A stretch of 37,939 nucleotides of DNA from Candidatus Hermodarchaeota archaeon (GTDB lineage Archaea > Asgardarchaeota > Lokiarchaeia > Sigyniarchaeales > SOKP01): positions 7,537 through 45,475 of the forward strand of contig JBHLLG010000021.1 of the NCBI GenBank assembly GCA_048885925.1, written 5' to 3'. Positions 1,525-37,939 of this stretch are shown here, in pieces. The stretch's first letter is position 1, and the number at the start of each line of letters is the position of its first letter. Below the pieces are notes generated by a model. The model saw nothing but the letters and a program-made list of their open reading frames with translations. It ran no database searches and was not told the DNA's origin. The position numbers and the translations under genes are program-made.

Positions 1525-2856
1525 TTAGAGAAAGAGATCTATAGTCTTTTGTGTTTTAATGAAGTTAATTATTTTGCTACTTTCTCTCCAATATTTATAA
1601 TCAACCATGAAACCGTTTGCCATACTTTTCAAAGCATCATTAAAATTATCCATAATAACTGGTTGGCTGATCCACATAGCATTATTAACCGTCTCTCTTA
1701 TTACCCATACTCCCAAAGGTACTACATATCCTCCTGAAACTTCCCGAAATATTAAAACTCTTGCTTGCTTTTTAATTTTATAGAGGTATTCACATACAGA
1801 TTTTCTAGCAGCATAATAAGCACCAGTGATATTACTCGCGTAAGATTTTCTTCCATGATAGAATTCATAATCCGTCATTATCTGTGGTTTGAGATTATGA
1901 ACATTTCCATTAAGTGAGATATTCCATAGCGTATTTGGAGCCCAGCATTCATTCATTTCATAGATAAATTTACCGGGAAAAAGAAGAATTTTAAAGTGAT
2001 TATCTAGATACGATGCTTCAAAGATCTGATAATCATTTATTTCTGGAAATTTTTTAATTTCTTCGATTAATGCTTTTGAAATTATATCGTCCACTGCTGT
2101 TATTGACCATCTAGTAGGAACTATTCTTCTTTTTTCACTGTCACCAAGCAATCCTGCTGAAAAGATTCTTTCAATGGTCGATTCTGGAACATTTCCTTTA
2201 AAATAAAGATATTGAGAAACTGCTTCAGATGCCTTTAAATCGGTATCTGAAACACAATAATCAACTTGTGGATGAATTTTTGTATTTTCGGTAATTTTAA
2301 TTTTTTCTGTCATTCCAGAAGGTCCTATTGGTAAAGCATGATTATCCATCATCATTCTTAGATTCATTTTTTGTAACTTCGTTTCAGTATCAACTGGTCT
2401 TGCTGCCATCGATAATTCTTGAGAGGTTTCTAGAAATCTCTGCGTTTTTAATGGAGGTGTATTCTTTCGTGATTTCTTTCCAATATTTACATTTATTTTA
2501 AAATTACTCCTCACTAAACTACTCCTATATCGGATTATATCTACCATCGGTCTACCAAACCAAAGTTCAGGAGCATCAAGTAAATGATAATCTGAAATGT
2601 TAAGTCCAGTTTCAAATTCTTGAAAGGGTACTAATGGTCCGAGATATACATTTGGATAATTGAAGCGACCAACAAAAAATCCTGGTGGGCTAGCACCGAA
2701 AATTTCAACATCTCTCCTCGTTTTATCCAATTCAAAAGGAACTAATGATTTCATTACGGACTTTTTAAGCAAGATAGGACACATTTTTTTGCCACATAAA
2801 AGTCTTGACCCTTTGCAACGAAGACAAATATTTTTTTCTGTTGGAGGTCTAACCAA
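1525..2856 (-). CDS. nreA: Archaeal DNA repair protein NreA
   Basis: N-terminal CxxCKG...LCG...CP motif, SPPGFFVGRFNYP, RRIVPTRWSITAVDD, YVVPLGVWVIRE, C-terminal PIP box QKTIDLF. Confidence 0.92.
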   Translation of the reverse strand: MVRPPTEKNICLRCKGSRLLCGKKMCPILLKKSVMKSLVPFELDKTRRDVEIFGASPPGFFVGRFNYPNVYLGPLVPFQEFETGLNISDYHLLDAPELWFGRPMVDIIRYRSSLVRSNFKINVNIGKKSRKNTPPLKTQRFLETSQELSMAARPVDTETKLQKMNLRMMMDNHALPIGPSGMTEKIKITENTKIHPQVDYCVSDTDLKASEAVSQYLYFKGNVPESTIERIFSAGLLGDSEKRRIVPTRWSITAVDDIISKALIEEIKKFPEINDYQIFEASYLDNHFKILLFPGKFIYEMNECWAPNTLWNISLNGNVHNLKPQIMTDYEFYHGRKSYASNITGAYYAARKSVCEYLYKIKKQARVLIFREVSGGYVVPLGVWVIRETVNNAMWISQPVIMDNFNDALKSMANGFMVDYKYWRESSKIINFIKTQKTIDLFL

Positions 2857-15079: not shown

Positions 15080-15085
15080 TACATT

Positions 15086-15364
15086 TTACCCTCCTGATAC
15101 CGGTAATAAGAACGCAATTGTGTCTCCATCTTTTAATCTGACAAGAGAGGGATTTTTCTCATGAATTGCTTGATTATTTACAATAACTGAAATTAAATTA
15201 TGTAATTTTTGTTCTTTTTCATCCCAAACTAACTTTCTTAAATTATATTTCTCAAATAATAAATTTAGTACTCCTTGTAAATTATTACTTGATAAATCGA
15301 ATTTCTCCTTCTCTTTACCAGTTATATCCTTAAATTCCGCAAAATATAGAACTTCAACATTCAT
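15086..15364 (-). CDS. moaD: Molybdopterin synthase sulfur carrier MoaD/SAMP-like
   Basis: VLYFA start, C-terminal PVSGG, adjacent to moaE. Confidence 0.92.
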   Translation of the reverse strand: MNVEVLYFAEFKDITGKEKEKFDLSSNNLQGVLNLLFEKYNLRKLVWDEKEQKLHNLISVIVNNQAIHEKNPSLVRLKDGDTIAFLLPVSGG

Positions 15365-15389
15365 CTATTAAACAAACTATTATTATTTA

Positions 15390-16310: not shown

Positions 16311-16322
16311 GTATCAATCTCC

Positions 16323-16748: not shown

Positions 16749-16772
16749 TTCGGCTAAAATCTTAATATTTTA

Positions 16773-16796
16773 CGTTATACTTTTCTGTACATAACG
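16773..16796. promoter_or_regulatory. ModE-like operator upstream of moaC
   Basis: CGTTAT-N12-ATAACG inverted repeat; same motif and spacing recur at 19775-19798. Confidence 0.72.
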
Positions 16797-16836
16797 ATAC
16801 CTATTTATCTAAAATCTAAATTTCTTAAAAACTTAT

Positions 16837-17928: not shown

Positions 17929-17929
17929 T

Positions 17930-18625: not shown

Positions 18626-18676
18626 GAGTTTTTCCTTATTATAATGTTAAGAAAAAAAAATATATTATAAAATTTC

Positions 18677-19711: not shown

Positions 19712-19774
19712 AGTATCTTATTCAATATTTATAGTTTAATTCGATATTTATTCAAAATTTTCATCAAATTTAAA

Positions 19775-19798
19775 CGTTATGTCCAATGGGTAATAACG
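19775..19798. promoter_or_regulatory. ModE-like operator between tupA and the divergent molybdo-enzyme gene
   Basis: CGTTAT-N12-ATAACG inverted repeat. Confidence 0.72.
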
Positions 19799-19958
19799 CC
19801 TGAAATTACAAAGAGGCCAAATCTGGTATATATATCATTATACTTTTTAGTAAATTCACTATTTTTTTATGAAACTTATTTTAACTTTAAATAAATTTAC
19901 CCTTTCAAAACATAAGCATTACAACTAAATATATTGGTTCAATAAATTATATAGAATT

Positions 19959-24793: not shown

Positions 24794-26365
24794 TTATGAT
24801 AACGAGAATTCTGGATCAGCATAATTCAAGTCTAGAAATGCCTTTTTTCTTGTACGACAAGAACTGCATTCATTACATGGTTTACTTCCATCACTATAAC
24901 AACTCCATGTAACTTCTAAAGGGACATTTAACTCTTTAGCTAGTTGAATTACCTGACTTTTTGTCATATTTTCCAATGGAAACAACAATTTTACAATAGT
25001 TTTATCTTTATTATGCTTACCATCGTTGATCAATTTCTCTAAGGATTTGAAAAAATTTTGAGTAGTATCAGGAAACTTTAGAGGATCGGCTGTTATATGT
25101 CCGCCTATTATATATTTACACCCATAAATTTCAGCAAAATAAGCTGCTGTTGCGTAAAAAACAAGATTTCGTGCTGGAATAAACCCTTCAGGAGCATAAA
25201 CAGCGCTAGGAATAGGAAATCCTTCAATCCGTAAATCAATTGCTTCTTTTATATAAGGGATCGGGATTTCAATGAATTTAATATTGAGACTCTCTGCTAA
25301 TTTTAAAGCTGCCTTTTTTTCATTTTCCGGTCGAAAATGGTAATTAAATGATAGGGCTATTAAATCGTATCCCTTATTATATGCCCAGTAAAGCGCAGTA
25401 GTAGAATCTATTCCTCCAGATAATAAAATTATAGCTGAATTTGTTTTAGTTTCTTCAGAAAAATTCAACTTTGATATAACAGCAGCTTTTACCGCATCTT
25501 CTAAATCTGATAACTTATAACCTAACGCTTCGGCAGTGATATTATCATTTGAGGTAACATCACTCTTCATTACATCAACCATCTCTTTACATATTCCAAA
25601 TATTTCTGGAGCTTCTTCATAACTTATATGATTAATTCGTGGTTTTGGAACATTAAAACCCAAATCAACCATAATTTTAACAATCATTTCAATTAGATCA
25701 ATCATGTTAACAACTTTTGGACCAACAAGATCATAAATTTGATTATGCTTTCCAATTCCATCCGCAGCAGCTAAAAATGCTTCAACGGCATTCTTAACAA
25801 ATATCGGTTGCATAGGAGCATTACCAGTTCCAGCTACTTGAACTACTCCTTTTCCTATTTGATCTATTAGATCTGGGATTAATTCATCATTAGGTCCCAA
25901 AATATATGATGGTCTAAAAATTACATGACGTATTTTACTTTCTTTAAGTAACTGTTCAGCAGCCAATTTAGAGCGAAAATATTCATTATTAGCCCATTCT
26001 TCAATCCCATATCTATCAACCCCTAAACCTGAAGGGAACACGATTCTAGAGACATTTTCCTCTAATGCTGCTTCTATTAAAACACGCATTCCCTCAATAT
26101 TAACCTTTTCAAATATTTCTTTCGAACCACACACTACACCTCTAAATTGCATTACAGCTTTACACCCTCTTAAGGCTTCCTTTAATGAGTCAAGATCAAA
26201 ATTTTTAATAATAATTGCCTTGGCTCCAAGCTTCTCCACTTCTTTAGCTGCTTCATCTCTTCGCACAATACCTACAACATCCCATCCCCTCTGAATAGCT
26301 ACTTTAGTCGTGTGGAGTCCTAAATATCCATTAGCTCCAGTTATAGCTAATTTCTTATATTCCAT
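24794..26365 (-). CDS. queC: Fusion of NAD(P)-binding SDR/epimerase domain and 7-cyano-7-deazaguanine synthase QueC
   Basis: N-terminal TGANGYLG, YFRSK, FRPSYILG; C-terminal LLSGGIDS, FIPARNLVF, FPD, TWSCY...PCNECSSC. Confidence 0.88.
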   Translation of the reverse strand: MEYKKLAITGANGYLGLHTTKVAIQRGWDVVGIVRRDEAAKEVEKLGAKAIIIKNFDLDSLKEALRGCKAVMQFRGVVCGSKEIFEKVNIEGMRVLIEAALEENVSRIVFPSGLGVDRYGIEEWANNEYFRSKLAAEQLLKESKIRHVIFRPSYILGPNDELIPDLIDQIGKGVVQVAGTGNAPMQPIFVKNAVEAFLAAADGIGKHNQIYDLVGPKVVNMIDLIEMIVKIMVDLGFNVPKPRINHISYEEAPEIFGICKEMVDVMKSDVTSNDNITAEALGYKLSDLEDAVKAAVISKLNFSEETKTNSAIILLSGGIDSTTALYWAYNKGYDLIALSFNYHFRPENEKKAALKLAESLNIKFIEIPIPYIKEAIDLRIEGFPIPSAVYAPEGFIPARNLVFYATAAYFAEIYGCKYIIGGHITADPLKFPDTTQNFFKSLEKLINDGKHNKDKTIVKLLFPLENMTKSQVIQLAKELNVPLEVTWSCYSDGSKPCNECSSCRTRKKAFLDLNYADPEFSLS

Positions 26366-26589
26366 TTTCTGGGCATCCTCAAATTTCTTATAAAAAGTAA
26401 ATTTCCTTTTTCATTTTAAGATAATTATTATTTTTTATTGAAATCATTTTTCTAAGAAAATATATTTTATTTTTTAAGAAAACCTCTTTCATATTTATTG
26501 TTTTAAAACATAAAATATAAAAATAGCAAAGAGCTTGTACTATACAAAAATAGTCAAAGCAAAAAAATAACAATAGGGGAAATCTACTT

Positions 26590-27045
26590 TTGGGATTTAA
26601 AGTAATTGTAGAATCAACAGATGCTAAGTTTAGTGCAAGTCACTTCTTAAAAGAACCTCTTCAATGTACACGGCTCCATGGGCATAATTATTACGTTCAT
26701 GTTGAAGTAGGTGATGTTCTCGATAAAAATCATTTTGTTGTAAATTTTGCAGATCTAAAGGAAAATTTAATGACAATAATTAAACCTATGGATCATTATG
26801 TTTTAATACCAACAGAATCAAATGAATTAGATATACAAGAAGAAAAAGATTCCATAGAAATTGTAGCATCTAATAAAAGATATGTTTTCCCCCGAGAAGA
26901 CGTTTTTTTTTTACCTTTACCTGCCACCACAAGTGAACTTTTAGCTAAATATATTCACGACAAATTAAAAGAAATATATAGAAATAAAAAAATTCTGGTA
27001 AGAGTAGGAGAAAGTAAAAGTACTATGGCTGTGTTTGAAGAATAA
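26590..27045 (+). CDS. queD: 6-carboxytetrahydropterin synthase / PTPS family
   Basis: FSASH, CTRLHGHNY, MDH, TSELLA, VGES; divergent from queC. Confidence 0.88.
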   Translation: MGFKVIVESTDAKFSASHFLKEPLQCTRLHGHNYYVHVEVGDVLDKNHFVVNFADLKENLMTIIKPMDHYVLIPTESNELDIQEEKDSIEIVASNKRYVFPREDVFFLPLPATTSELLAKYIHDKLKEIYRNKKILVRVGESKSTMAVFEE

Positions 27046-27170
27046 GTTAAAATCTCCATAAACTTGATTTTCACCTAGAATTAAATAAAATTGAACATGT
27101 TCACAGAAATTAATATATTTTTTATAAAGTATTAAAAATACAATTAAAAACATATATTTATTTCATTTTA

Positions 27171-28067
27171 ATGATGATTGAGAAAACATATAAAATAGGA
27201 GTGTTCTATGGCACTGGTCCAGAAACAGAAATGTTAACTCAAAAGTTCGTTGGTAATCTCATTAATAATGAAGAATTTTGTAAAGCTTGTGAAGTTTTAG
27301 AACAAAATGTAAAATGCGATAAATGTCGTGAATATGTTAAGAGTTTTGCTAATTCAATCTATTTTTATGAGAAATTAGGTGAAAATGCTCCTGATTTTAT
27401 TGAGGAACCAGAACAATATCTTCCGAAAAATCTCCCTCCTGTTGACTTTTTAATGGTTGTAGGAATTCACCAAGATTTACTTTCTGGTCTTCCTGATTAC
27501 TTAAAAAATAGTAAAGTAAAGGCTGTTATTGTTCCAATAGAAGATCCTAAATGGGTACCAGCTGGTCTTCAAGTTCAAGTCTTAGAAGGATTTGAAAAAT
27601 TTGGTATTCAAGCAGCCTTTCCTAAGCCTTTTTGCTCCTTAAGTAAAGAGATAAATGAATATAACAAAATTGGGTTTCATTTAACAAAAAAACATGATTT
27701 TATCGATAAATTTATAGATTATTTTAAAATTGGTGAACCAATTGTCTCGTTTCTCTTAAGTAAGGATGGAGAATCTATTGAAGATACATGTGTCATTCAA
27801 AGTGCTCCATGTGGAAGCAGTTATTATGTTTGCCAGCAATTAAAATCAAAATATTTTAAGAATGGAAGAAGTGGAGATCTTTCTTTAAATGAAAGGATAA
27901 GTAAAGCTCATCATGCTTATCCATGTAATGCTTCAATGGACCAAGATTCTATATTAAAGGATTCAATACTGCATGTTGGAGGATACTTGATTAGAAATGC
28001 AATTAGGAGAGATCTAAACCTCGAAGAACAAGAAGGTCAAAAACTAGTTTATGTCATAAAAAAGTAA
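27171..28067 (+). CDS. DUF166-family archaeal protein
   Basis: PEQYLP, IHQDL, PKPFCSL, SAPCGS, HHAYPCNASM. Confidence 0.8.
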   Translation: MMIEKTYKIGVFYGTGPETEMLTQKFVGNLINNEEFCKACEVLEQNVKCDKCREYVKSFANSIYFYEKLGENAPDFIEEPEQYLPKNLPPVDFLMVVGIHQDLLSGLPDYLKNSKVKAVIVPIEDPKWVPAGLQVQVLEGFEKFGIQAAFPKPFCSLSKEINEYNKIGFHLTKKHDFIDKFIDYFKIGEPIVSFLLSKDGESIEDTCVIQSAPCGSSYYVCQQLKSKYFKNGRSGDLSLNERISKAHHAYPCNASMDQDSILKDSILHVGGYLIRNAIRRDLNLEEQEGQKLVYVIKK

Positions 28068-28119
28068 TATTTGGTTTTAGTTTAATCATTCAAGAAGCTA
28101 TTTATCTAAACATAAGTGA

Positions 28120-28884
28120 TTAACTTGATGCTTTGTATTGATAGTACTGGAGATTAGTTTGTATTCCTTCTATTGCAATAGCGGCATAATATTTATCTTC
28201 AGGAAATAAATCAATTATTGTCCAGAAATTAATCTCATTCATCCGAAATATTTTACTGATTCTTCTTGTAGGATATTTTTTATCAACAAGGACGCTAAAT
28301 TCATTAAGGGGTTCTGACAATCCAGTTCCTTTGGCTTTGATGAATGCTTCTTTACGTACCCAACATGTGTAAAAGAAATGTTCTTTTTGTTTTTTAGGTA
28401 GAGAGTTCTTAATCTTTATTTCTAGGTCTGAGTAACATTTACTACCAACAAGATCACAATCGATATTTCTATTAAATTGTTGGAGATCAATACCAACTTC
28501 TTGATTACGTGCAATAGCATAAAGAGCAATATTACCTGAATGAGATGTACTAAAGAATAATGGTTTAGTGTTATAATTATATTTTAGGAATGGTTTTCCA
28601 TATTGATTATACGTAAAGACTATATTTTTTGGGTCATCATCTAAATATATACTTAAGATATGTCGAAGTATTCCCCTTGAAGCAATATGCTTATTTTTGT
28701 CTTTATTAAACCTATAACTCTCAAATTTTAATCTCTCAGCAGCTGATAAGACATTTTTGTATTTTTGAAGTTGCTTCTTAGAGATATTCAGGTTGGCTTT
28801 CCAAACATGGACTTTATTATTAAGCTGTGTCTTTGTAGGTTGTGTTTGCATCCAGATATTTTGCTCTAAAATTTTCGTGTACAT
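28120..28884 (-). CDS. sfp: Sfp-type 4'-phosphopantetheinyl transferase
   Basis: YGKP, FSTSHSG, VGIDL, WVRKEAFIKAKGTGL; starts 7 nt after the NRPS stop. Confidence 0.92.
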   Translation of the reverse strand: MYTKILEQNIWMQTQPTKTQLNNKVHVWKANLNISKKQLQKYKNVLSAAERLKFESYRFNKDKNKHIASRGILRHILSIYLDDDPKNIVFTYNQYGKPFLKYNYNTKPLFFSTSHSGNIALYAIARNQEVGIDLQQFNRNIDCDLVGSKCYSDLEIKIKNSLPKKQKEHFFYTCWVRKEAFIKAKGTGLSEPLNEFSVLVDKKYPTRRISKIFRMNEINFWTIIDLFPEDKYYAAIAIEGIQTNLQYYQYKASS

Positions 28885-28891
28885 ATATTTC

Positions 28892-31800
28892 TCACTCAGA
28901 TCTCTCCCTAATCAATTCCCTAAGCTGTTTCATGAAATTATTAGCTAATTTTTCTATAGTTGTCTTTTTGTAAATGTTATTACTATAGCACCACTCCATT
29001 TTATATTGTCGGCCGATTACTCCTGCAGTGATTTCTATTGAATATTTTCTATCTCCTAGAAGGTAGTTATCTTGCGATTTGTGAAATTCAGAGATTTTTG
29101 CGAACGGAGATTGACTTAGGAGTGCATGGTCAAATTGACCGACATAATTAAAGCAAATTTGTGCTTGAGGTGTTTTTTGTACGTGCATAGAAGTACGATA
29201 TTTATCATTTAGGTATCTTAACAAACCATAATTAAATCCATGGTGAGGAACTGCTGCGAACTGCTCTTTTATTGATAATAGATTCTCTTGAAGACTAGAA
29301 TTTGAATCGAAACTGACATAGAACGGGAAAAAAGTAGTACAACGACCAACAGTTCTGGAGAGATTCATATCATCAAATATTTGTTCTCGCCCATGTGCTA
29401 GGAGATCAAACAGAAAGGAAGATTCATGAGTCCAATCGTAAAAAGTTTTTGCCAATATAGTAAGTAGGACGTCAATAGTTCGGATCGGATATTTCTGCGG
29501 AAGTTGATTTATTAAGGAATAGGTTTCTTCACGGCTTATCATTGTGTACACGCTTTCAACCGTTTCTGCTCTTGGATTGCCTGGATAATCTGCTGGAATT
29601 GATGGAACATTATTTAAAAGCAAATTATGCCAATAATCAATTTCCTCCTCAACCTCCTCCGATTGTGCATATGCTTCTAACCTTTCACTCCAGCGTTTAA
29701 ATGCACTTGTTTTTGGTGGAAATGATATCTCCTTACCATTGAGTAATTGTTGATATCCTGTTTGAATATCTTCTAAAACAATTCGCCAAGAAAAACCATC
29801 CAAAATTAAGTGATGTCCAACCATTAGAAATATACCTTCCTCCTCTGGTCCAAAATTAATAAAGGACGTATTTAATAAAGGACCATTAGAAAAGTTCAGA
29901 CTTTGCTGGAGGTTCGCCGAGATTTCATATAATCTTTTTTCTTGAGTAATTTTTGAGAGACCTGATAAATCAATTTCAGTAAATATGTTCACATCTTCCT
30001 TACTTATTATTTCTTGCTGCCATTTGTCGTTCTTGAGGAAATATCTTGTACGGAGGCAATCATGATGCTTACATAGTTCAAGTACTACATTCTTTAATAA
30101 TATGGGATCAATTCCTGGTTTTGTATAGATTGTATGACCCTCAACCCAAAGATGAAGATTCTTTAGTGATTGTTCAAAGAACCAATACTGACCAGGTAAT
30201 AATGATACATCGCCTGTTATAGTTATTTGATCTTTTTTGTTTGATACTTTGCCTTTCTTAGCAATTTTTGCTAACTCAAATATGTTTGAATACTCAAAAA
30301 TCTGTACAGGGGCAAATCCAAGACCTGCGAGGTTTGCTCTTGCAACAGCTTGAATGGCTAATATTGAATCCCCACCATTCTCGAAAAAGTCATCATGAAT
30401 ACCTATTTCATCAATTTGAAGGATTTCACGCCAAATTTTAGCTAAAATTTTTTCATTTTTTGTCTTTGGATATACTCTTTCGGACTTATGAATATGAATA
30501 TTATTTGCCTGGGTTGATAGGGCTTTTCTATCTACTTTCCCAGTCGGAGTCAGGGGCATCTCATTTAGTATCATAAATTTAGTAGGTACCATGTAGTTTG
30601 GAAGTTTTGATTCTACATATACACGAAGATCATTATTGCTTATGCTATCCTTAATCTCTGGAACAACATAGGCAACAAGTTGCTTATTAAATTTTGATTC
30701 ACCTTCTGCAATAACTACGACGTGTTTTAGTTGAGGATGTTGGATCATGACCGCTTCAATTTCTTCTAATTCGATTCGGAATCCACGGATTTTAACTTGA
30801 AAATCTTCCCGTCCTAAAAATTCAATATCACCACTTGGTAAATATCGCCCTAAATCTCCAGTCTTGTATAGATATTCTTTATTACGAGGATGGTAAATAA
30901 ATTGAGCTTTGGTTCTTTCTTCATCTCGCCAATAACCTTTAGCAACACCAACACCCCCAATGAATAATTCACCTGGAACCCATATAGGGCAAGGTTCTAA
31001 AAAATCATTCAGTACACGGAAAAATTGATTTTTCAAAGGTTTACCGTATGGAATACTACTCCATTTGTCGTCCACATGTAATATTGGGTAAAGTATTGAC
31101 CAGATTGCTCCTTCCGTAGCACCACCTAAGCTTATTATTTGAATATCTCCTTCTTGAATTGATCTGATCTGGCTTGGTAAATTTACTGGGATCCAATCAC
31201 CACTCATTAGAATAATTCTTAGTGATGATGGTAATGTTTTCAATATTCCTTTAGTATATTCAACCAGGATCTTCATGAGCGCAGGAACAGAATTCCATAA
31301 AGTCACATTATGTCTTTTAATCATTTTGAGCCAATTTTCGGGATCAGGAGATTTACTAACATCTGGAAGTACTATAGTTCCACCAGCTGCGAGTGTTCCG
31401 AAAATATCATATACAGATAAATCAAAATTTAAAGCAGAAATCGCAAAGACTCTATCTTTATGTGTTACATCAAAACGATGGTTTATATCTTCTATAGTAT
31501 TGACAGCGCTTTGATGTGAAATCATTACGCCTTTAGGTAATCCCGTAGAACCTGAAGTAAAAATAACATATGCCAGGTCATTAGGAGATTGCATAGGTAT
31601 ATGAGATGTTTCACTAAATGAGTTTACAATTAAGTCGTCTACACATAAAATCTGTAGATTATCTTCTGGTAAGAAAATTTCTGAAATCCAAGACTGTGTA
31701 AGGACAATATTTATTTGTCCGTAATTAATCAAGTATTGAATACGCTCTTCTGGATACCAAGGATCAATAGGAAGGTAAGCTCCACCCGATTGAAGGATCC

Positions 31801-34800
31801 CAAGAACTGCGACAATTTGCTCCCAGCCTTTTTCCATAATAACGGCTATAAGTTTATTTGGTTGAGCTCCATGATTGAGAAGCCAATTTGCCACTTGATT
31901 TGCTTTTCTTCCAAGCTCACCATAAGAAAGGGTTTTTGATGATGATATGATGGCTTTTTTCGCTGGTGTTTTTTCTGCATGCTGGAAAAATTTAGTTTGA
32001 AGGAGATCATTTCCTAGGGGCATTTGGGTTGCATTTACAGAATCTTGAATCATGAGATGTTCTTTTGGAACTAACCAATGAGCGATTGTTGTCCAGTTTG
32101 AATCCCAAGCTTCCTGGCTGTTACTTAAGTAATCAAGGAGCCTACAATATGCCCTAAACATGTCATCTATGAGGGATCCCGGAAAAAATGAACCTACTAC
32201 ATCCCAATTGAATTGTAAGGAATCATTTTCTTCACGTAATTGGTGATCTATCCAGACTTGTGGAGTTTGAGTAAGACAGTTGACAATTTTCCCTATCCAA
32301 TTCAAAGGATTTTGTTTCTTGTTTAGATTTTCAGTCTCGAGAAGACTTGTAAATACAACAGGCATAGAGGCGTCATTTTGTGTACCCTTATTCCGAGATA
32401 GTTTTCTTAATACTTGAACACCATTAAAAAAGCGATGATCATAATCTTGCCAAAAATCCGCTTGCAGCCTTTTCGCAATTGATTCAAATGTATCTTCATT
32501 GGAAATTTCTACTCCCAATAATAATAATGACGTAAAATCACCGACAATATCATTGATTTCTGGATGGATCGGTATACGGTTAAAAATTGGGATGTTAATA
32601 GTAAATCTTGATGATTTACTCCATACTGATAGTATGGATGCATAAGCTGCCAATAGCACACTTGAGGGCGTTAAACCAGATTTTGCAGCCCTTGACTTTA
32701 ACTGGTTCCAGCTTTCTGAATTTAATTTGGATTCTTTTCTTGTGAAATATTGATTCATTTCATTCGGCTTTATCTTGAGTATTGGCAACTCTGGAGCGGG
32801 AGGAAGTGAGTGTAATTTATTTAACCAATAGGATCGGGACTTCTGGAAGATATCTGAATCTTGAATATTAGATAATGCCAACACATAATCTCGAAAAGAT
32901 AAACTTAATTTTGGTAATGGTTCATCGATATTTTCATAAAGAAGAGCAAGTTCATGAAGGATGATTTGTAAGCTTCTAAAATCTATCATAGAAAAATCAT
33001 AACTAAAATGGATCCTCTTCTTGTCACCATCAATAATTGAAACGCAAATATTAAATAGGGGCCATTTTCCTAAACCGAGAACTTCATATGATAACCTCTG
33101 TCTGATTTGGTTACTAGATAATTCATCACCAGTACAATCAAATACTTCTATTTTGTAGGGTGGACAGTCTTCAAGGATTATTTGATTTCCATCTGGTAAT
33201 ACTATACATCGCAACATATCATGCCGGGTTATCAGTTTGTTCCAAGCCTTTTCGAATTGTCTAATGTTCAGATACATTGTTTCAAATTCATAATAAGCCT
33301 GAGTTGGGATATTTCCCAACTCGAAAATATCATTCCGGCCAACCCAATATACTTTTTGTAGATCAGTTAATGGGAAAGGAGAATATCTATCATTGGGATT
33401 ATGACATAATTTTAAGATTTCTCCTTCCTCTAAAGGTTTCTTTGATTTGTTTATTTCTATTAGATTCGCAAGATTGGATATTGTAGGGTTTAGATAAAAA
33501 TTAAATGCTGAAAGATTCACGTTAAATTTTTCATCAATTTTAGCTAAAAGTTGAATTACTTGTAATGAATTTCCACCTAATTCAAAAAAATTGTCAAAAA
33601 TTCCAATCTGATCAATAAATAAGATTTCTGACCAGATTTCAACAAGTGATTGATCTACTTTGGTTTTTGGACGAGAATAAGAAGATGACATCCTTGGCCT
33701 TTCACGGGAAGGTTGTGGAAGCGCATTTCTGTCAACTTTTCCGTTTGGTAGCCTTGGAAAGTCTTTCATCCACACATATGTAGAAGGTATCATGTATTCC
33801 GGTAGATGGTCATTGAGATAAGAAATTACAGTTTGCTTATCTAATATTTGCTCTAAATTGTTTGCAGAAACCATATATGCTATTAATCCAGCCACTTTGT
33901 TGTTTTCATTTCTAGCTGTCACAATAGCATCCTTAACAAGGTGGTGCTGCTGTAATACTTGCTCAATTTCTCCCAGTTCTACTCTGAATCCTCTAATCTT
34001 CATTTGATTGTCAATACGGCTTACGAATTCTAAATTCCCATCACATCTGCGTTTAATTAAATCGCCAGTTTTGTATAAACGATCCAATGGATTTGGTGAA
34101 AAGGGATCTCGAATAAATTTTGCATCCGTAAGTTCAGGTTGATTTAGATATCCCCTTGCAATGCCTATTCCTCCAATGTAAAGTTCTCCAACTTCACCTG
34201 GATTTACTGGAGTTAATGTGTTATTTAACAGATGGACCCGAATATTTGAGATCGGCTGACCGATGGGCGGATTATTTTCATTAACTACACATTCAGCAAC
34301 AGTCGTACATACTGTGGATTCTGTAGGACCATAAGCATTTAGAAAACGTCGGTTTTGTCCCCAACGTTTTACAATTTCTGCTTTACATTGTTCACCTGCA
34401 GAAATTAGAGTTCGCAATTCTGGCAATTCGTCCTCTGGGAGAACTGAAAGAATTGAAGGAGGTAAGGTTACAATGTTTATCTTTTGTTCTTTAAGTATAC
34501 CGATAACACCGGATCCTTTTTGAAGCATGTACTCAACTGGCACATACAAAATTGCACCAGCAATTAATGTAGTGAATATTTCTGAAACCGAAGCATCGAA
34601 GCTGAGAGAAGAAAATTGAAGAACTTTATCGTTGGGCTTAATATCAAAGATCTTTATCTGTTCTCTTACTAAGTTGCTTAAACCTTTATGTTCAATCATT
34701 ACGCCTTTTGGAGTTCCAGTAGAGCCTGATGTGTAAATTATGTAAGCTAAATTATTAGGCATCGAATTACTAACTGGATTTGAAGAATTCTCCTTTGAAA

Positions 34801-35275
34801 TTAATTCCGATTCGCCATTAATTGATATTATTTCAACATCACCTTGATTTGGAATTTTATCCGATAATTCATCCTTTGTCAATATTATTTTCACTTGGGA
34901 ATCATCAATCATAAATGAAATTCGACTATAAGGATATGAAGGATCTAATGGTAAATAAGCTCCTCCAGCCTTTAGAATTCCCAGAATACTTACTATCATA
35001 TCTATTGACCGGTCAATAAAAATACCAACGATTATTTCTGGGCCAACTCCTTTTGCTTGGAGATAATGTGCTAATTGATTAGCTTTAAGGTTTAGATCAA
35101 AATAACTTATCTGATCGATTTCACAACATAATGCAACATTATCTGGTTTAGATTCGGCTACTATTTCGAACAACTCGTGTACACAATAGTTAATTTGTAG
35201 ACTTTTTTTCTGTTCATCGCTATGCCTTATACCTTCTTGAGATATATTGTTTGATCCAAGATTAGTTATTTTCAT
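28892..35275 (-). CDS. Two-module nonribosomal peptide synthetase A-T-Cy-A-T-E(like)
   Basis: A1 YTSGSTGTPKG/NAYGPTE/YKTGD; T1 FFELGGNSL; Cy FPLTDLQKVYWVGR, DFSMID, PVVFTS, QTPQVWIDHQ; A2 FTSGSTGLPKG, SLGGATE; T2 FFENGGDSI; terminal HHLILDGFSW, HGRE, RTVG, VPHHG, FNYVGQ. Confidence 0.95.
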   Translation of the reverse strand: MKITNLGSNNISQEGIRHSDEQKKSLQINYCVHELFEIVAESKPDNVALCCEIDQISYFDLNLKANQLAHYLQAKGVGPEIIVGIFIDRSIDMIVSILGILKAGGAYLPLDPSYPYSRISFMIDDSQVKIILTKDELSDKIPNQGDVEIISINGESELISKENSSNPVSNSMPNNLAYIIYTSGSTGTPKGVMIEHKGLSNLVREQIKIFDIKPNDKVLQFSSLSFDASVSEIFTTLIAGAILYVPVEYMLQKGSGVIGILKEQKINIVTLPPSILSVLPEDELPELRTLISAGEQCKAEIVKRWGQNRRFLNAYGPTESTVCTTVAECVVNENNPPIGQPISNIRVHLLNNTLTPVNPGEVGELYIGGIGIARGYLNQPELTDAKFIRDPFSPNPLDRLYKTGDLIKRRCDGNLEFVSRIDNQMKIRGFRVELGEIEQVLQQHHLVKDAIVTARNENNKVAGLIAYMVSANNLEQILDKQTVISYLNDHLPEYMIPSTYVWMKDFPRLPNGKVDRNALPQPSRERPRMSSSYSRPKTKVDQSLVEIWSEILFIDQIGIFDNFFELGGNSLQVIQLLAKIDEKFNVNLSAFNFYLNPTISNLANLIEINKSKKPLEEGEILKLCHNPNDRYSPFPLTDLQKVYWVGRNDIFELGNIPTQAYYEFETMYLNIRQFEKAWNKLITRHDMLRCIVLPDGNQIILEDCPPYKIEVFDCTGDELSSNQIRQRLSYEVLGLGKWPLFNICVSIIDGDKKRIHFSYDFSMIDFRSLQIILHELALLYENIDEPLPKLSLSFRDYVLALSNIQDSDIFQKSRSYWLNKLHSLPPAPELPILKIKPNEMNQYFTRKESKLNSESWNQLKSRAAKSGLTPSSVLLAAYASILSVWSKSSRFTINIPIFNRIPIHPEINDIVGDFTSLLLLGVEISNEDTFESIAKRLQADFWQDYDHRFFNGVQVLRKLSRNKGTQNDASMPVVFTSLLETENLNKKQNPLNWIGKIVNCLTQTPQVWIDHQLREENDSLQFNWDVVGSFFPGSLIDDMFRAYCRLLDYLSNSQEAWDSNWTTIAHWLVPKEHLMIQDSVNATQMPLGNDLLQTKFFQHAEKTPAKKAIISSSKTLSYGELGRKANQVANWLLNHGAQPNKLIAVIMEKGWEQIVAVLGILQSGGAYLPIDPWYPEERIQYLINYGQINIVLTQSWISEIFLPEDNLQILCVDDLIVNSFSETSHIPMQSPNDLAYVIFTSGSTGLPKGVMISHQSAVNTIEDINHRFDVTHKDRVFAISALNFDLSVYDIFGTLAAGGTIVLPDVSKSPDPENWLKMIKRHNVTLWNSVPALMKILVEYTKGILKTLPSSLRIILMSGDWIPVNLPSQIRSIQEGDIQIISLGGATEGAIWSILYPILHVDDKWSSIPYGKPLKNQFFRVLNDFLEPCPIWVPGELFIGGVGVAKGYWRDEERTKAQFIYHPRNKEYLYKTGDLGRYLPSGDIEFLGREDFQVKIRGFRIELEEIEAVMIQHPQLKHVVVIAEGESKFNKQLVAYVVPEIKDSISNNDLRVYVESKLPNYMVPTKFMILNEMPLTPTGKVDRKALSTQANNIHIHKSERVYPKTKNEKILAKIWREILQIDEIGIHDDFFENGGDSILAIQAVARANLAGLGFAPVQIFEYSNIFELAKIAKKGKVSNKKDQITITGDVSLLPGQYWFFEQSLKNLHLWVEGHTIYTKPGIDPILLKNVVLELCKHHDCLRTRYFLKNDKWQQEIISKEDVNIFTEIDLSGLSKITQEKRLYEISANLQQSLNFSNGPLLNTSFINFGPEEEGIFLMVGHHLILDGFSWRIVLEDIQTGYQQLLNGKEISFPPKTSAFKRWSERLEAYAQSEEVEEEIDYWHNLLLNNVPSIPADYPGNPRAETVESVYTMISREETYSLINQLPQKYPIRTIDVLLTILAKTFYDWTHESSFLFDLLAHGREQIFDDMNLSRTVGRCTTFFPFYVSFDSNSSLQENLLSIKEQFAAVPHHGFNYGLLRYLNDKYRTSMHVQKTPQAQICFNYVGQFDHALLSQSPFAKISEFHKSQDNYLLGDRKYSIEITAGVIGRQYKMEWCYSNNIYKKTTIEKLANNFMKQLRELIRERSE

Positions 35276-35447
35276 TTTTTCAACTCTATATTTTGTTTTT
35301 AATTTTTTGTCTTTTCTTTAAATGATGTCATGATACCTGTTTATATGTAAAAAATAAAAAAAAGATATATAGAATGGAGGAATAGTGATTTAGGTGTGGT
35401 CATTCGATAAACCTTTTATCAAAATTTTTTCCTCCTTTTTCTATATT
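35276..35447 (-). repeat. Intergenic module copy A: stem-loop + U-tract + promoter/operator + leader
   Basis: Aligns with 36233-36404; shared core GATATATAGAATGGAGGAAT..TGATTTAGGTGTGGTCATTCGA; arms ATATAGAA/GGAGGAA pair with TTCCTCC/TTCTATAT. Confidence 0.85.
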
Positions 35448-35515
35448 GTAATTTAGAGATTTCAACCCTCTTTTGATATATCTCCTTTAATTATTTTTCT
35501 AATTATTTTCTACAT

Positions 35516-36232
35516 CTAATGAAAATTTATGTTAGATATTAATGCTATCTCAAGCAAACCAAGGAAGTTATAATATGGATTAGGCCCTGTATAATCTTCA
35601 CCTACTTTAACAATGAAGCTAATTACATGAATTTTTGCTGTGTCTCCCTCTTCCCAACCGTTGTATGAATTTAGAAACTCACCTGATCCATAGCCACACA
35701 AGAAAACTGATTCGAAAGTGCCACCACCTTCCCAAACATAATAGCCCCATGGGCGATATATAATATTTCCATCCTCATCATAGTCATCAGGTCCAAGTGT
35801 ATCTAAATCTATCGTAAATTTTAATTCATAGGTAAAATCCATGACTCCTCGAAATATGTGTATAGCTTCAGGAATAGGAAGGTAAAAATTTGTAACATGG
35901 AATGGAGCATTTTTTACATGCATTTTGACGGTAATTAGCAATATATTATTTTCAAGTTCTCTTTCAAGCACAGAACCTTTAGGATCATAGTCCAATGCGG
36001 AAACCCAATGCGGTATTGTTGGATCATCCAGAAAAGACCATATAATTAGCACCTTTTCATAATCTGGCATTCCTCCCATTGGATCTCGTACAACAGGAGC
36101 TAACCAATCCTCTATTGGTCTTTTATTTATTTTTCCTTTTCCGCTATACGCAATAGCTGCAGGGATGAAACTGAAAATGACAGTTAATATTATTACCACT
36201 AATACTAAATTTTTTATTTCCGATCTTTTCAT
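35516..36232 (-). CDS. Secreted protein of unknown function
   Basis: Signal peptide ending IFSFIPAAIA; beta-rich, aromatic body; no family recognised. Confidence 0.75.
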   Translation of the reverse strand: MKRSEIKNLVLVVIILTVIFSFIPAAIAYSGKGKINKRPIEDWLAPVVRDPMGGMPDYEKVLIIWSFLDDPTIPHWVSALDYDPKGSVLERELENNILLITVKMHVKNAPFHVTNFYLPIPEAIHIFRGVMDFTYELKFTIDLDTLGPDDYDEDGNIIYRPWGYYVWEGGGTFESVFLCGYGSGEFLNSYNGWEEGDTAKIHVISFIVKVGEDYTGPNPYYNFLGLLEIALISNINFH

Positions 36233-36404
36233 TTTTATATCAACTCTTAATTTTTTTTTTAAATTTTTGTTTTTTCTTTATTGTCATGGCACATATTTAC
36301 ACATTAAAAAATAAAAAAAAGGATATATAGAATGGAGGAATGATGATTTAGGTGTGGTCATTCGAGAAGCCATTTATCTAAACACTTTCCCCTATTTCTA
36401 TATT
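36233..36404 (-). repeat. Intergenic module copy B
   Basis: Same core and pairing arms as copy A. Confidence 0.85.
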
Positions 36405-36448
36405 TTTTAAAAACTAAATTTCATTGAGCAACCATCATACAATATTGT

Positions 36449-37039
36449 TTATTCTACAATTAAAGTATGTTCATAACTATATACAGAACCTGGATCTGGC
36501 CATTGAGGTCCATACCAAAATTCAGGACCGTCGTAATTTATAAATATTCTCCATCCTTTTTCTCTCGGATCCTCACCATAGAGTTTTTTAATCAACAATT
36601 CGCATTTTACTATATGTTCTCCCTTTTCAAAGAAGTTTGGTTCAAAAAATTGATACCAAATCCAAAGATGGAAATTATACGTGATAGGTTCACCAGTTTC
36701 AGGGTGGATATCCTCAATATCTTTAAATAAAATATGACATCTACGTAGTTTAACCTCTTTACCATCTATAGTAAGCGTCTCTTTAAAAGGTGGTCTGGTA
36801 TTCCAACCCTCATCTAGTTCTAACGGTATTGCTAAACCCCATCCAATTCTATAATAACTTTCTTTTGAACCATCAATAGTCCTTTCTTGAACGAAAGCTC
36901 CATTTCCTATCCATTGGTCTCCAAAAATTGGTCCTAAAAATGGAGGGATGCCTGCATTAACTGTGGATATAAAGCTGAAAATGAGAATTCCTACTGTAGC
37001 ACTCAAAGTTAATTTTGAAAAAAGTCTTGATTTATTCAC
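36449..37039 (-). CDS. Secreted protein of unknown function
   Basis: GTG start after the same GAGTTGATATAAAA leader; signal peptide ending IFSFISTVNA. Confidence 0.75.
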   Translation of the reverse strand: MNKSRLFSKLTLSATVGILIFSFISTVNAGIPPFLGPIFGDQWIGNGAFVQERTIDGSKESYYRIGWGLAIPLELDEGWNTRPPFKETLTIDGKEVKLRRCHILFKDIEDIHPETGEPITYNFHLWIWYQFFEPNFFEKGEHIVKCELLIKKLYGEDPREKGWRIFINYDGPEFWYGPQWPDPGSVYSYEHTLIVE

Positions 37040-37105
37040 TTTTATATCAACTCTAAATTTTTTTTAAATTTTTTTTTATTTCTTACGGTATTATGGCGCT
37101 TTTAA
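37040..37105 (-). repeat. Intergenic module copy C (promoter/leader part only, no stem-loop)
   Basis: TTTTATATCAACTCT, T-tracts and TTATGGCGC match the gene-proximal half of copies A and B. Confidence 0.7.
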
Positions 37106-37363
37106 TTAAATAAACAAAATTTTTACTTATTATTCGATCGTGCCATAACATTTTAAAAATAGAACGTTTCATATATAAATTTTATGATCAAGTTTTTATA
37201 TTAATAATAAGTATATATAATGTAGAAGTAAGGATTAATAACGTTTTTTGAAGTCTTTCTTAAAGAATTTTCAAGATAATTATGATAAAGTGATGTTAGA
37301 AAGAATAATTAAGATATAAGTTAAAATCTAATATTTAGCTTTAATAGGGGTCGAAAAAGCCGA

Positions 37364-37939
37364 TTGAATGAAAAAAATAGTAGTACTCTTGCAACAGAAT
37401 GGAATCAATTGATAGTAAAGCATCCATTGCGATTTGATATTTGGGCTATCCTTGAACTTCATACTCAATTGAATGTAACTCAAATTACTCATTACGTAGA
37501 ACAAAGTAAATCTACGGTTGCTAGACATCTTAAATTAATGGAAAAAGATGGGCTTCTTATATCAAGGATAGCAAAAGCAGATGTGAAAGGAAGGATACCA
37601 CCGAAGATCTATCAAATCAATCCAAGATTTCTAGAAAAGGAGTTAGAATTAGAAAAAAGGTTTAATTCAGAAGAACCTCAAAATCTTCAACAATTTTACA
37701 AAAAGGAGGTTACGAATTATCGAAAAATGAGTTATAATATAAAAAAACTGTTAAATTATCTAGATCCATTATTAGATCTTCTTGAAGAGCAGCTAGGGGA
37801 TATTAAAGCGGCTAAAAGTACCTATGATGAATTCTTATCATATATAGATGAACCAGTTTATCTCTATTTTGACAAAAAGCGGTCCAGAAAACTCATAGAT
37901 TTACATTCAGAATATGTTTTAAAATTACATAAGCTAGCT
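37364..37939 (+). CDS. ArsR-like winged-helix transcriptional regulator (runs off window end; absent from ORF track)
   Basis: TTG at 37364 opens MNEKN...HPLRFDIWAILE...LNVTQITHYVEQSKSTVARHLKLMEKDGLL; no stop found before the window end. Confidence 0.85.
   Translation, partial: MNEKNSSTLATEWNQLIVKHPLRFDIWAILELHTQLNVTQITHYVEQSKSTVARHLKLMEKDGLLISRIAKADVKGRIPPKIYQINPRFLEKELELEKRFNSEEPQNLQQFYKKEVTNYRKMSYNIKKLLNYLDPLLDLLEEQLGDIKAAKSTYDEFLSYIDEPVYLYFDKKRSRKLIDLHSEYVLKLHKLA

Follow-up and report, generated by a model that had tools for sequence, protein, structure and literature searches.

A probable laterally acquired two-gene NRPS cassette in a Lokiarchaeial chromosome and its proposed route to a thiazoline

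Modules 1 and 2 of bacitracin synthetase BacA form an Ile-Cys aminoacyl-thiazoline start unit, AusA is an A-T-C-A-T-R protein with reductive release, the PchE and HMWP2 lines take an ArCP-bound aryl acid as their starter, and BmdB closes with a C domain for which a free amine serves as substrate. The locus described here lies within a window of 37,939 nt (the whole stretch of DNA analysed) on contig JBHLLG010000021.1 of the Candidatus Hermodarchaeota assembly GCA_048885925.1. It shares with BacA the A-T-Cy-A(Cys)-T order and a free N-terminal amino acid, and an aminoalkyl-thiazoline intermediate is predicted. However, BacA has further modules and a line ending in TE, whereas the archaeal protein ends in an E-like domain with no partner found in the genome, and its A1 is of aromatic type instead of the Ile type of BacA. 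As in the aureusimine system AusA/AusB of Staphylococcus aureus, a bimodular NRPS is directly followed by its own PPTase gene, but Cy replaces C, an E-like domain replaces R, no release domain is present, and the NCBIfam AusA/AusB models match the NRPS and PPTase with scores far under the cut-offs (870 bits against 2500 and 55 bits against 225). The closest solved relatives of the Cy and Cys-activating A domains are found in PchE, HMWP2/Irp2, and the bacillamide enzyme BmdB; unlike those lines, the present one has an amino-acid A domain as starter and an E-like end, and none of the salicylate, ArCP, Ox, MT, or TE parts turned up. With an amino-acid A1, no TE, and neighbours that differ between loci, it does not resemble an aryl-capped thiazoline siderophore system of the pyochelin/yersiniabactin type.

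No known organisms are more closely related to eukaryotes than the Asgard archaea, whose chemistry is little known. NRPS clusters in Asgard genomes are already known from surveys, which have reported a C-domain-containing NRPS in a Lokiarchaeota MAG (PMC7472256), an NRPS BGC in an Asgardarchaeota MAG (PMC11051675), and 581 NRP BGCs in 3451 representative archaeal genomes (PMC12144867). In their available parts, these papers do not describe an architecture, a validated junction, an empty site, a second locus, a selection analysis, or dependence on a PPTase. Mis-binning can always be alleged against survey counts of this kind. For the present locus, the link to an archaeal chromosome is fourfold, consisting of an empty site, contigs from other samples that span a junction, insertion at a second locus, and selection, which makes the two genes (Table 1) a well-founded target for heterologous expression. 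It is likely that they represent a genuine, laterally acquired, self-contained NRPS cassette in a Lokiarchaeial (Asgard) chromosome, for which a thiazoline mechanism is proposed.

Table 1. Positions in the window of the cassette, its domains, and the flanking features
Feature	Position	Strand	Basis
PTPS/QueD-type gene	26590..27045		Pfam
DUF166 gene, left host flank, convergent with cassette	27171..28067	(+)	Pfam; 80-90% identical orthologues, matches in 35/39 other genus genomes searched
Insert of 7.27 kb relative to empty site of congener G002	28080..35349	.	flank matches of L011
Core common with second archaeal copy, L083:2002-9141	28107..35246	(-)	blastn, 92% nt identity
Sfp-type PPTase, 254 aa	28120..28884	(-)	Pfam ACPS and AASDHPPT_N
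NRPS gene, A1-T1-Cy-A2-T2-E-like	28892..35275	(-)	ORF, translation, Pfam, NCBIfam
Terminal E-derived domain, residues 1685-2127; HHLILDG kept, E4 = LLAHGRE, E5 = RTVGRC	28895..30223	(-)	PDB matches, motif table
T2 carrier domain, residues 1600-1680, GGDSI serine motif	30236..30478	(-)	Pfam PP-binding; own-genome PF00550 match C21:37802-37981
A2 adenylation domain, residues 1090-1595, code DLYNLSLIWK (Cys)	30491..32008	(-)	transferred alignment columns
Cy heterocyclization domain, residues 625-1075	32051..33403	(-)	PDB matches; DFSMIDFRS instead of HHxxxDG
T1 carrier domain, residues 536-612, LGGNSL serine motif	33440..33670	(-)	Pfam PP-binding at 543-606
A1 adenylation domain, residues 30-525, code DASTIAAVCK	33701..35188	(-)	ungapped alignment to 1amu_A
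Terminator-like repeat, long hairpin and U-run, 3' of 238-aa gene, just upstream of insert	35340..35497	(-)	7 G000 copies
238-aa gene, right host flank	35516..36232	(-)	no Pfam family; 78% identical orthologue beside DUF166 3' end in G002:C37
Second repeat copy, 3' of 196-aa gene	36297..36418	(-)	repeat comparison

The host had been called a probable Asgard archaeon in the first-pass annotation, and its Lokiarchaeial identity is supported by eukaryote-type actin (a match of 441 bits and 3 more), by ESCRT-III (two Snf7 matches), by markers of archaea on the same contig, and by close relatives that carry names. Nre_N, present once in the genome, shares the contig with the NRPS, and among 14 control genomes this family matches only the 3 archaea. 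The 90%-clusters of the NRPS and of QueD include proteins named Candidatus Lokiarchaeota archaeon and Promethearchaeota archaeon. The described contiguity of the cassette with the archaeal genes DUF166 and queD was also confirmed, with Pfam as the basis for both. The left junction, between DUF166 and the PPTase, is bridged by contigs of three other runs, namely X2 (27935-30123, 1 mismatch), X3 (27884-32121), and X6 (27941-28318, from a different study). The right junction is bridged by only about 30 nt, the contigs of X2 and X3 stopping in the multi-copy repeat at 35379-35382. Neither a chimeric junction nor a break in coverage was seen. In X5 and X6, coverage of the NRPS by contigs is piecewise, and the uncovered bins in those runs count as no evidence. 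The NRPS starts 2.7 kb from the contig end.

The corresponding empty site was found in the congener G002, in which contig C37 runs from the 3' end of DUF166 into the repeat and the 238-aa gene, some 50 nt taking the place of the 7.27 kb. In the window, the host genes on either side of the cassette are convergent. Positions 2-91 of L011 match 27987-28079 of the window, and positions 141-1194 match 35350-36405. Terminal inverted or direct repeats were looked for at the insert ends (28080 and 35349) and none were found; the insert holds only two ORFs and shows no inverted repeats, target-site duplication, or transposase/integrase of a transposon or integrative element. One joint in X6, from 28061 to 35356, may represent an empty-site form in the same community; with 29 nt on its shorter side and a depth of 2.9, it is too weak to be used.

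Both genes also occur on a separate JGI metagenome contig (L083), between different archaeal genes and with 92% nucleotide identity over 7144 nt. This copy is homologous to the cassette from around NRPS codon 11 to some 15-20 nt past the PPTase stop, and its flanks match G000:C22:35944-37636 and 37765-37885 at 72-78%. Because the neighbours differ between the two loci, no neighbour belongs to the cluster. Between the window and L083, the NRPS had a dS of 0.24 and the PPTase one of 0.18, versus 1.71 and 0.94 for flank genes, indicating that the cassette moved more recently than its two hosts diverged. The NRPS dN/dS of 0.21 overall (0.14-0.21 across A1, T1, Cy, A2, and E) implies that the cassette is under purifying selection; the values were 0.21 for the terminal domain and 0.37 for the PPTase, whose amino acid identity is 85%. 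Eight full or near full-length archaeal NRPS copies were found, which are 88-90% identical, 2119-2127 aa long, and free of stops. A bacterial-type assembly line and the PPTase that it needs can thus persist and move among Lokiarchaeia.

Several observations bear on the foreign origin of the cassette. The NRPS was found in 0/52 other species of the genus, and the cassette has a GC content of 35.0% versus 29.0 +/- 2.0% (top 0.1% of windows) and a GC3 of 25.2% versus 19.4 +/- 2.9%. In a Cy-A2 tree, 7 archaeal copies formed one clade (support 100) with a stem of 0.67 among bacterial Cy-A modules, without resolution of the sister group. The lateral acquisition proposed in the first-pass annotation is therefore borne out by the empty site in G002, the absence from all congeners, and the nesting among bacterial modules. 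A scan of 185,579 species genomes with the NRPS yielded 43 loci, all bacterial, whose best segments were 35-56% identical, and in a word-index search no hit beyond the cassette cluster exceeded 51% identity. The cassette is, by sequence comparison, ultimately bacterial in origin; since identity to bacterial relatives does not exceed about 59% in any domain, the donor cannot be named.

The NRPS is a single ORF (ORF list and translation), and the uninterrupted 2127-aa A-T-Cy-A-T-E-like protein noticed on first reading was recovered by the ORF, its translation, Pfam, and NCBIfam. Its Pfam content comprises AMP-binding, PP-binding, Condensation, and AMP-binding_C, each twice. As in modular (type I) NRPSs, the A domains (PF00501 x2, 549.5 bits summed; TIGR01733, 845 bits) have the core motifs and a 10-residue code ending in K517, and the two PF00550 carriers have the phosphopantetheine serine; with regard to chain release, TE, R, and terminal C are absent from the ORF according to Pfam. 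The middle C-family domain is of the Cy type, matching solved Cy structures at 3.5e-96 to 6.4e-59 (EpoB Cy 3.5e-96, Irp2 8e-95, BmdB 2.6e-78, with FmoA3-type and PchE structures among them) versus 3.8e-16 at best for ordinary C domains in the PDB matches, and its DFSMID aligns to the EpoB motif (DxxxxD). It also contains PVVFTSLL and QTPQVWIDHQ; in view of BmdB and EpoB studies, the Thr of PVVFTS and the Asp of QVxxD are candidate cyclodehydration residues.

The A1 code was read from an ungapped HMMER alignment to 1amu_A (chain positions D235, A236, W239, T278, I299, A301, A322, I330, and C331) and that of A2 from the same alignment columns. The A1 residues at these positions are D A S T I A A V C, and K513 sits in the NGKVDR motif. 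Both codes previously read by eye, DASTIAAVCK and DLYNLSLIWK, were reproduced under GrsA numbering, and the former is common to all 8 archaeal copies. The best single-domain PDB matches were ApnA A1, TycA, and GrsA for A1, and 6lta, BmdB, and PchE for A2. A literature text search for DASTIAAVCK and four near variants found no printed substrate assignment; the tentative assignment of Tyr to A1 draws on likeness to Phe-activating domains, and the substrate is most likely Tyr or para-substituted Phe. For A2, DLYNLSLIWK is listed as a Cys-activating code in the available text of PMC12283262, which, together with the column read-out, agrees with the first-pass annotation in regarding it as the Cys code of Cy modules.

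The ATG of the PPTase (28884-28882) follows the NRPS stop (28892-28894) after a gap of 7 nt, and Pfam supports the Sfp-type assignment made earlier for this gene. The protein has the two subdomains of Sfp-type (group II) PPTases, PF22624 at residues 35-123 and PF01648 at residues 130-236, and scores 173.5 bits against the HetI NCBIfam equivalog (cut-off 370), below the level of a HetI assignment. Its nearest non-cassette protein is 38% identical. The sole ACPS match and the sole two PP-binding matches in the genome all fall inside the cassette; in this 181-contig assembly (95% complete, 4.4% contaminated), the only PPTase means the only one found.

The terminal domain matches solved E domains of PvdL, BacC, GrsA, TycA, and TycB at 1e-60 to 3e-76 and C domains only at 2e-10, and HHLILDG, with the second His of HHxxxDG, is present in 8/8 archaeal copies, placing it in the E family. 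The E4 motif reads LLAHGRE in 7/8 copies and FLAHGRQ in one, so that the Glu of EGHGRE is missing. L1959 of the NRPS aligns with TycA E882 (chain position 882 of 9bfd_A), a numbering inferred from 9bfd_A chain positions, the available text of PMC8905534 and PMC10510592 giving no residue-by-residue statement. The replacements of this Glu by Leu and of the GWFT Trp by Arg are fixed in 8/8 archaeal copies, whereas control E-domain segments have Glu in 321/332 and Trp in 329/332 at those positions; the control set consists of E-like segments of 149 representative proteins from an exhaustive representative search, whose ranking is dominated by multi-E proteins. A catalytic role is described for the Glu of the EGHGRE motif (TycA E882, GrsA E892) in the available part of PMC8905534. 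The earlier description of this domain as E-like holds with respect to family, but with the catalytic Glu missing it is here named E-derived instead of an E domain proper. Without Glu and Trp in this domain, the final step is uncertain. TE, reductase, MbtH, and tailoring genes are absent from the window, as had been stated, and in the whole 95%-complete genome no Thioesterase (PF00975) match over the cut-off, no Condensation (PF00668) domain beyond those of the NRPS, and no MbtH were found. A Glu-less terminal E-like domain in a TE-less line thus offers a tractable case for the question of product release.

In the proposed mechanism, the PPTase would turn T1 and T2 into their holo forms, A1 would load an aromatic amino acid, most likely Tyr or para-substituted Phe, and A2 would load Cys. 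Cy would join both and cyclodehydrate them, giving an aminoacyl-thiazolinyl thioester on T2. The E-derived domain may still epimerise the acidic thiazoline C4-H or may have another role, for example in off-loading. Since the line has no TE, R, or terminal C domain, release would occur through hydrolysis or through some factor acting in trans. We infer both product and release from this scheme, by which a small thiazoline peptide is probably produced in these archaea. The possibility that the thiazoline intermediate leaves spontaneously in a diketopiperazine-type release was considered and rejected by chemical reasoning instead of computation, since the ring would need a bridgehead C=N.

It is extremely improbable that an assembly or binning artefact has joined a bacterial NRPS to archaeal DNA or binned it with such DNA. 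The GC content 6 points over the genome mean, the absence from all 52 congeners, the location near a contig end, the contamination estimate of 4.4%, and the exclusively bacterial named non-cassette homologues would fit such an origin, but both flanks are adjacent at the G002 empty site, the DUF166-PPTase junction is reproduced in three other runs, and the independent JGI contig has both genes between other archaeal genes and genus-specific repeats. Moreover, a partial copy was deposited as Candidatus Lokiarchaeota, GC3 is largely host-adapted, and even the nearest bacterial relatives reach no more than 59% identity per domain. In bacteria, a terminal E domain normally passes the chain to the next subunit. 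The NRPS could be an orphan, captured as the opening subunit of a larger bacterial assembly line while its partner was left behind, and having no defined product or yielding only slowly hydrolysed shunt material. This is consistent with a terminal E domain lacking a downstream C, TE, or R domain, with the loss of the E-domain catalytic Glu, and with the ...Cy-A-T-E ends that exist within longer bacterial proteins (P0042 and P0026). Eight stop-free copies of the same length, dN/dS values near 0.2 for all catalytic domains, the E-like one among them, retention of the PPTase with the NRPS at both loci, and fixation of the derived E motifs in all copies argue against it and make it improbable.

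The two remaining alternatives concern the product and its release. It is possible, though somewhat unlikely, that the substrate activated by A1 is not Tyr but Phe, homotyrosine, a different para-substituted aromatic acid, or an amino acid specific to the host, in which case the product would not be Tyr-Cys derived. Only W239S and I330V separate the A1 code from that of GrsA-Phe, variants of TycA with Ser at the aligned position (7ywj and 5n81, which we take to be engineered for para-substituted Phe analogues) are among the top solved matches, and a link between DASTIAAVCK and a substrate is absent from the texts searched. On the other hand, DASTIAAVCK and DASTVAAVCK are presumably Tyr codes of cyanobacterial NRPSs, and the nearest bacterial A1 relatives (Nostoc and others) have an identical or 1-off code. 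As for release, the E-derived domain might act as an off-loading catalyst (by hydrolysis or transfer to a free nucleophile) and not as an epimerase, so that the two genes would be a complete pathway. This appears unlikely, but is favoured by the retained His and the Leu and Arg replacements, fixed in 8/8 copies under constraint, by the failure of the PF00975 and PF00668 genome searches to find another release function, and by the position of Glu-less E-like segments, which are C-terminal in 6/11 cases versus 52/321 for those with Glu (Fisher p = 0.005, exploratory, with rows that are not independent). Against it, we know of no E-family domain that releases chains, and the GGDSI motif of T2 is of a type that we take to be typical of carriers serving E domains. 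In addition, GrsA E892A retains about one sixth of activity according to the available part of PMC8905534, and His alone may therefore still epimerise. Quite unlikely is the broader proposal that a minimal complete pathway circulates laterally among Lokiarchaeia as a two-gene cassette, bringing its own PPTase for hosts without a carrier-protein system and using the E-derived domain for off-loading. If true, Asgard archaea would make and release an aminoacyl-thiazoline, as a metal binder or signal in syntrophic consortia.

With regard to the upstream side of the preferred laterally acquired cassette, the first-pass annotation had described the same leader as that preceding the neighbouring genes. 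The shared repeat is real, but its reading as a leader was not upheld. An Rfam search of 27900-37939 gave no match at E <= 1. The repeat is also present at the G002 empty site, and each of its 7 copies in G000 lies 3' of a co-oriented gene. As judged from these features, it is a terminator-like element that was already in place 3' of the upstream gene, and its fold (-18 to -25.5 kcal/mol) is succeeded by a run of 8-9 U.

Pfam detected AMP-binding, PP-binding and Condensation-family domains, two of each, in the large protein of the cassette, and the ACPS domain together with the AASDHPPT N-terminal subdomain in the 254-aa protein, which identifies the latter as an Sfp-type PPTase (its best NCBIfam model, HetI, scores 173.5 bits, below the cut-off of 370). 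The uninterrupted NRPS frame and the adjoining Sfp-type PPTase claimed in the first-pass annotation are thus borne out by the ORFs and Pfam matches. The first Condensation-family domain is a heterocyclization (Cy) domain; among solved structures it is closest to EpoB Cy (3.5e-96), Irp2, BmdB, 6lta (a Cy-A-T NRPS) and PchE, ordinary C domains reach 3.8e-16 at best, and DFSMIDFRS occupies the place of the C-domain HHxxxDG. The final domain is a member of the E family, with the E domains of PvdL, BacC, GrsA, TycB and TycA scoring 1e-60 to 3e-76 and C domains 2e-10. In the genome, no TE match over the cut-off, no MbtH and no C domain beyond those of the cassette could be found.

Coordinates of the features (window positions unless a contig or stretch is named; G000, source genome; L011 and L098, stretches of contigs C37 and C9 of the relative G002)
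Feature	Location	Strand	Remarks
NRPS gene	28892..35275	-	uninterrupted 2127-aa ORF
PPTase gene	28120..28884	-	254-aa ORF, 7 bases downstream of NRPS
Nre gene	1525..2856		single in genome; same contig as cassette
Repeat copies	35340-35497, 36297-36418; G000 C1:334157-334291, C1:330483-330587, C54:3791-3917, C38:24099-24204, C159:957-1056
Left empty-site match	L011 2-91 vs window 27987-28079
Right empty-site match	L011 141-1194 vs window 35350-36405
Megasynthase	L098 (G002:C9) 9718-19704	-	Pfam order NMO-type ER, KS, AT, ACP, KR, DH, ACPS
Megasynthase, other congeners	G020:C19, G022:C22, G023:C46, G024:C125, G076:C21, G026:C118, G060:C62

The host genome (3.9 Mb in 181 contigs, 95% complete and 4.4% contaminated, with the window at C21:7537-45475) is Asgard on several lines of evidence, with one profile match to Actin (441 bits), three further actin-family matches and two to Snf7. 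Within 14 control genomes, the Nre family was matched in the three archaea alone. Proteins with 90% or higher identity to the neighbouring QueD carry the name Promethearchaeota archaeon, and the cluster that holds the NRPS includes one partial protein recorded as Candidatus Lokiarchaeota archaeon.

The cassette occupies a site that is empty in G002, whose contig C37 begins with the final 75 bases of DUF166, followed ~50 nt on by a repeat and then by the orthologue of the 238-aa gene. At this position, between two convergent genes, the window holds an insert of 7.27 kb (28080-35349) with the two genes as its sole content; the insert shows neither terminal repeats nor a target duplication and has no recombinase gene. 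GC content is 35.0% vs 29.0 +/- 2.0% for the genome (top 0.1% of 954 windows) and GC3 is 25.2% vs 19.4 +/- 2.9% (top 3.8% of 1418 long ORFs); the composition of the cassette is foreign, yet largely adapted. A coverage break or chimeric joint, which the first-pass annotation had named as refuting its reading, was not seen among contigs of four other runs (three studies) compared with window 26000-37939. The DUF166-PPTase junction is spanned by contigs of X2 (27935-30123, 1 mismatch), X3 (27884-32121, 21 mismatches) and X6, from a different study (27941-28318, 6 mismatches). On the NRPS upstream side, X2 (30105-35379) and X3 (34202-35382) show zero mismatches from the NRPS across the 74 nt upstream of it and end ~30 nt into the multi-copy repeat; this junction is supported, without full bridging. 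In the G002 assembly a contig break falls exactly on the insertion site (G002:C2:2-895 and G002:C37:2-76 both end in the 3' end of DUF166), which could reflect strain heterogeneity there in that sample.

The sequence upstream of the NRPS, previously taken for the same leader as that of the neighbouring genes, is a repeat with seven copies in the source genome. It is a terminator-like element on the 3' side of the upstream 238-aa gene, is present at the G002 empty site, and recurs in other members of the genus. In the intergenic repeat (~110-150 nt), 8-9 U come after a long, interrupted hairpin, and the loop (CGAATGACCACACCTAAA) is strongly conserved. A co-oriented gene immediately precedes the repeat in 7/7 cases, the products of these genes mostly starting with a signal-like segment; the repeat has no match in Rfam. 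The cassette was inserted right after the U-run, and the NRPS's own upstream region comprises 74 nt (35276-35349), unrelated to that of the second archaeal copy on the JGI metagenome contig L083. The loop conservation exceeds the need of a plain terminator. The 238-aa and 196-aa genes (35516-37039, minus strand) belong to no Pfam family and have a signal-like start, and relatives with 27-37% identity to the 238-aa protein form tandem arrays in several congeners (G027:C70, G006:C1:3207196-3211521 and G011:C140).

A bacterial origin of the cassette is clear from sequence comparison. The best identities outside the cassette cluster are ~50% for A1, ~48% for Cy, ~59% for A2 and ~41% for E, and for the PPTase the closest relative reaches 38% identity. 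In a FastTree analysis of 109 Cy-A2 segments (returns of two homologue searches, a subset of known modules), the seven archaeal copies group in a single clade (support 100, stem 0.67) inside a bacterial radiation of Cyanobacteriota, Acidobacteriota, Bacillota, Omnitrophota and unnamed rows, with no resolved sister group; no donor is identifiable from the per-domain identities, the PPTase search or this tree. The nesting among bacterial segments, the empty G002 site and the lack of an NRPS in the other species representatives of the genus (0/52 genomes) agree with the lateral acquisition proposed earlier.

On L083 (9391 nt), both cassette genes are present with 92% nucleotide identity over 7144 nt; the homology sets in near codon 11 of the NRPS and stops 15-20 nt past the PPTase stop. 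The flanks on this contig, a GATase fragment and a glucosamine-6-P-isomerase-like gene, differ from those in the window; because the neighbours differ between the two loci, no flanking gene at either is part of the pathway. The L083 flanks are 72-78% identical to G000:C22:35944-37636 and 37765-37885, where the equivalent site is a mere 120-nt spacer with convergent genes on either side. The same flank is 70-79% identical to 50/52 congeners, so L083 comes from a relative. Between window and L083, dS is 0.24 for the NRPS and 0.18 for the PPTase, vs 1.71 and 0.94 for the 319-aa and 173-aa flank genes between G000 and L083, so the age of the cassette is several-fold below that of the split between its two hosts. 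It moved between Lokiarchaeial lineages, or else one close source supplied both hosts. Seven more cassette NRPS proteins (2119-2123 aa, one partial), 88-90% identical, occur in ENA, NCBI and JGI assemblies. The dN/dS is 0.21 for the whole NRPS (A1 0.17, T1 0.14, Cy 0.17, A2 0.20, E-like 0.21, and T2 0.61, from 17 differences only) and 0.37 for the PPTase.

The cassette PPTase is the sole ACPS match in the 95% complete genome, the two NRPS T domains are its sole PP-binding matches, and 43 of the 52 congeners have no ACPS match, the remaining nine mostly carrying one fused in a ~3500-aa megasynthase (inside a long frame in 8/9); the NRPS thus depends on the PPTase it travels with. The megasynthases, found in several congeners and not in G000, are type I PKS/FAS-like proteins of ~3300-3500 aa with the PPTase domain fused C-terminally. 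Stand-alone proteins of ~430-480 aa with weak Condensation N-terminal matches (41-75 bits) were observed in 21 of 59 relatives searched (including G007, G008, G011, G013, G014, G016, G019, G021 and G054), not in G000, and are probably acyltransferases of the same superfamily.

The A1 pocket region was aligned ungapped to 1amu_A, whose chain numbering reproduces D235, A236, W239, T278, I299, A301, A322, I330 and C331. The columns give DASTIAAVC for A1, with K513 within the NGKVDR motif, and DLYNLSLIWK for A2, so both codes in the first-pass annotation are correct. DASTIAAVCK is presumably a Tyr code; no mention of it or of four near variants was found in the paper texts searched. Counted as support for Tyr are W239S and I330V as the sole differences from GrsA-Phe, the same or a one-off code in the bacterial domains closest to A1 (Nostoc and others), and ApnA A1, TycA and GrsA as the best single-domain structures. 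For A2, DLYNLSLIWK is listed among Cys-activating signatures (PMC12283262). We regard the domain order, intact motifs, both codes, dependence on the co-resident PPTase and selection together as demonstrated. A1 would load an aromatic amino acid and Cys would be loaded second, Cy would condense both and then cyclodehydrate, and the last step would fall to the E-derived terminal domain.

The earlier E-like call for this domain stands as to family, by its matches to solved E domains, whereas the catalytic Glu is replaced by Leu. All eight archaeal copies depart from E domains at conserved positions, with LLPGQ(Y/N)WFF vs the usual LTPIQxWFF in E1, LLAHGRE (7/8) or FLAHGRQ (1/8) vs LEGHGRE in E4, and RTVGRC (7/8) or RTVSRC (1/8) vs RTVGWF in E5. 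L1959 aligns to position 882 of TycA chain 9bfd_A, and Glu882 and His743 are the catalytic pair of TycA (PMC8905534). An exhaustive search provided a control: in its 149 best representative proteins (P0215-P0363), 321 of 332 E-domain segments have Glu at the catalytic position and 329 have Trp at the E5 position. Glu is also kept in bacterial relatives ending ...Cy-A-T-E (P0042, P0026). The archaeal domain may still epimerise, because about one sixth of activity is left in GrsA E892A (PMC8905534, introduction), or else may have another role; epimerisation at the acidic C4-H of a thiazolinyl thioester seems plausible to us. Glu-less segments are C-terminal in 6/11 cases vs 52/321 with Glu (Fisher p = 0.005; exploratory, rows related), an excess that may point to degenerate E-like domains at protein ends as a recurrent class.

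NRPS clusters have been reported in a Lokiarchaeota MAG (PMC7472256) and an Asgardarchaeota MAG (PMC11051675), and 581 NRP clusters in 3451 archaeal genomes (PMC12144867); the cassette may be among the clusters of these surveys. Added here are proof of the NRPS gene's seat in an archaeal chromosome, the two-gene, self-sufficient make-up of the cassette, its movement between loci and lineages, and the altered terminal E-derived domain. The NRPS is a known enzyme kind, well anchored, in an unusual host, and no new system type.

Elsewhere in the window, a metal-related neighbourhood (10396-21029) contains an FTR1 iron permease, two MoeA paralogues, MoaB-like, MoaE, ThiS/MoaD-like, MoaA and MoaC genes, a molybdate/tungstate-type ABC transporter with TOBE domains and a molybdopterin oxidoreductase; it has no link to the cassette, whose L083 neighbours are others. 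In a 523-aa protein (24794-26365, minus strand), QueC is fused to an N-terminal NAD-dependent epimerase/dehydratase-type domain; its gene adjoins those for PTPS/QueD and DUF166, in a block kept across the genus.
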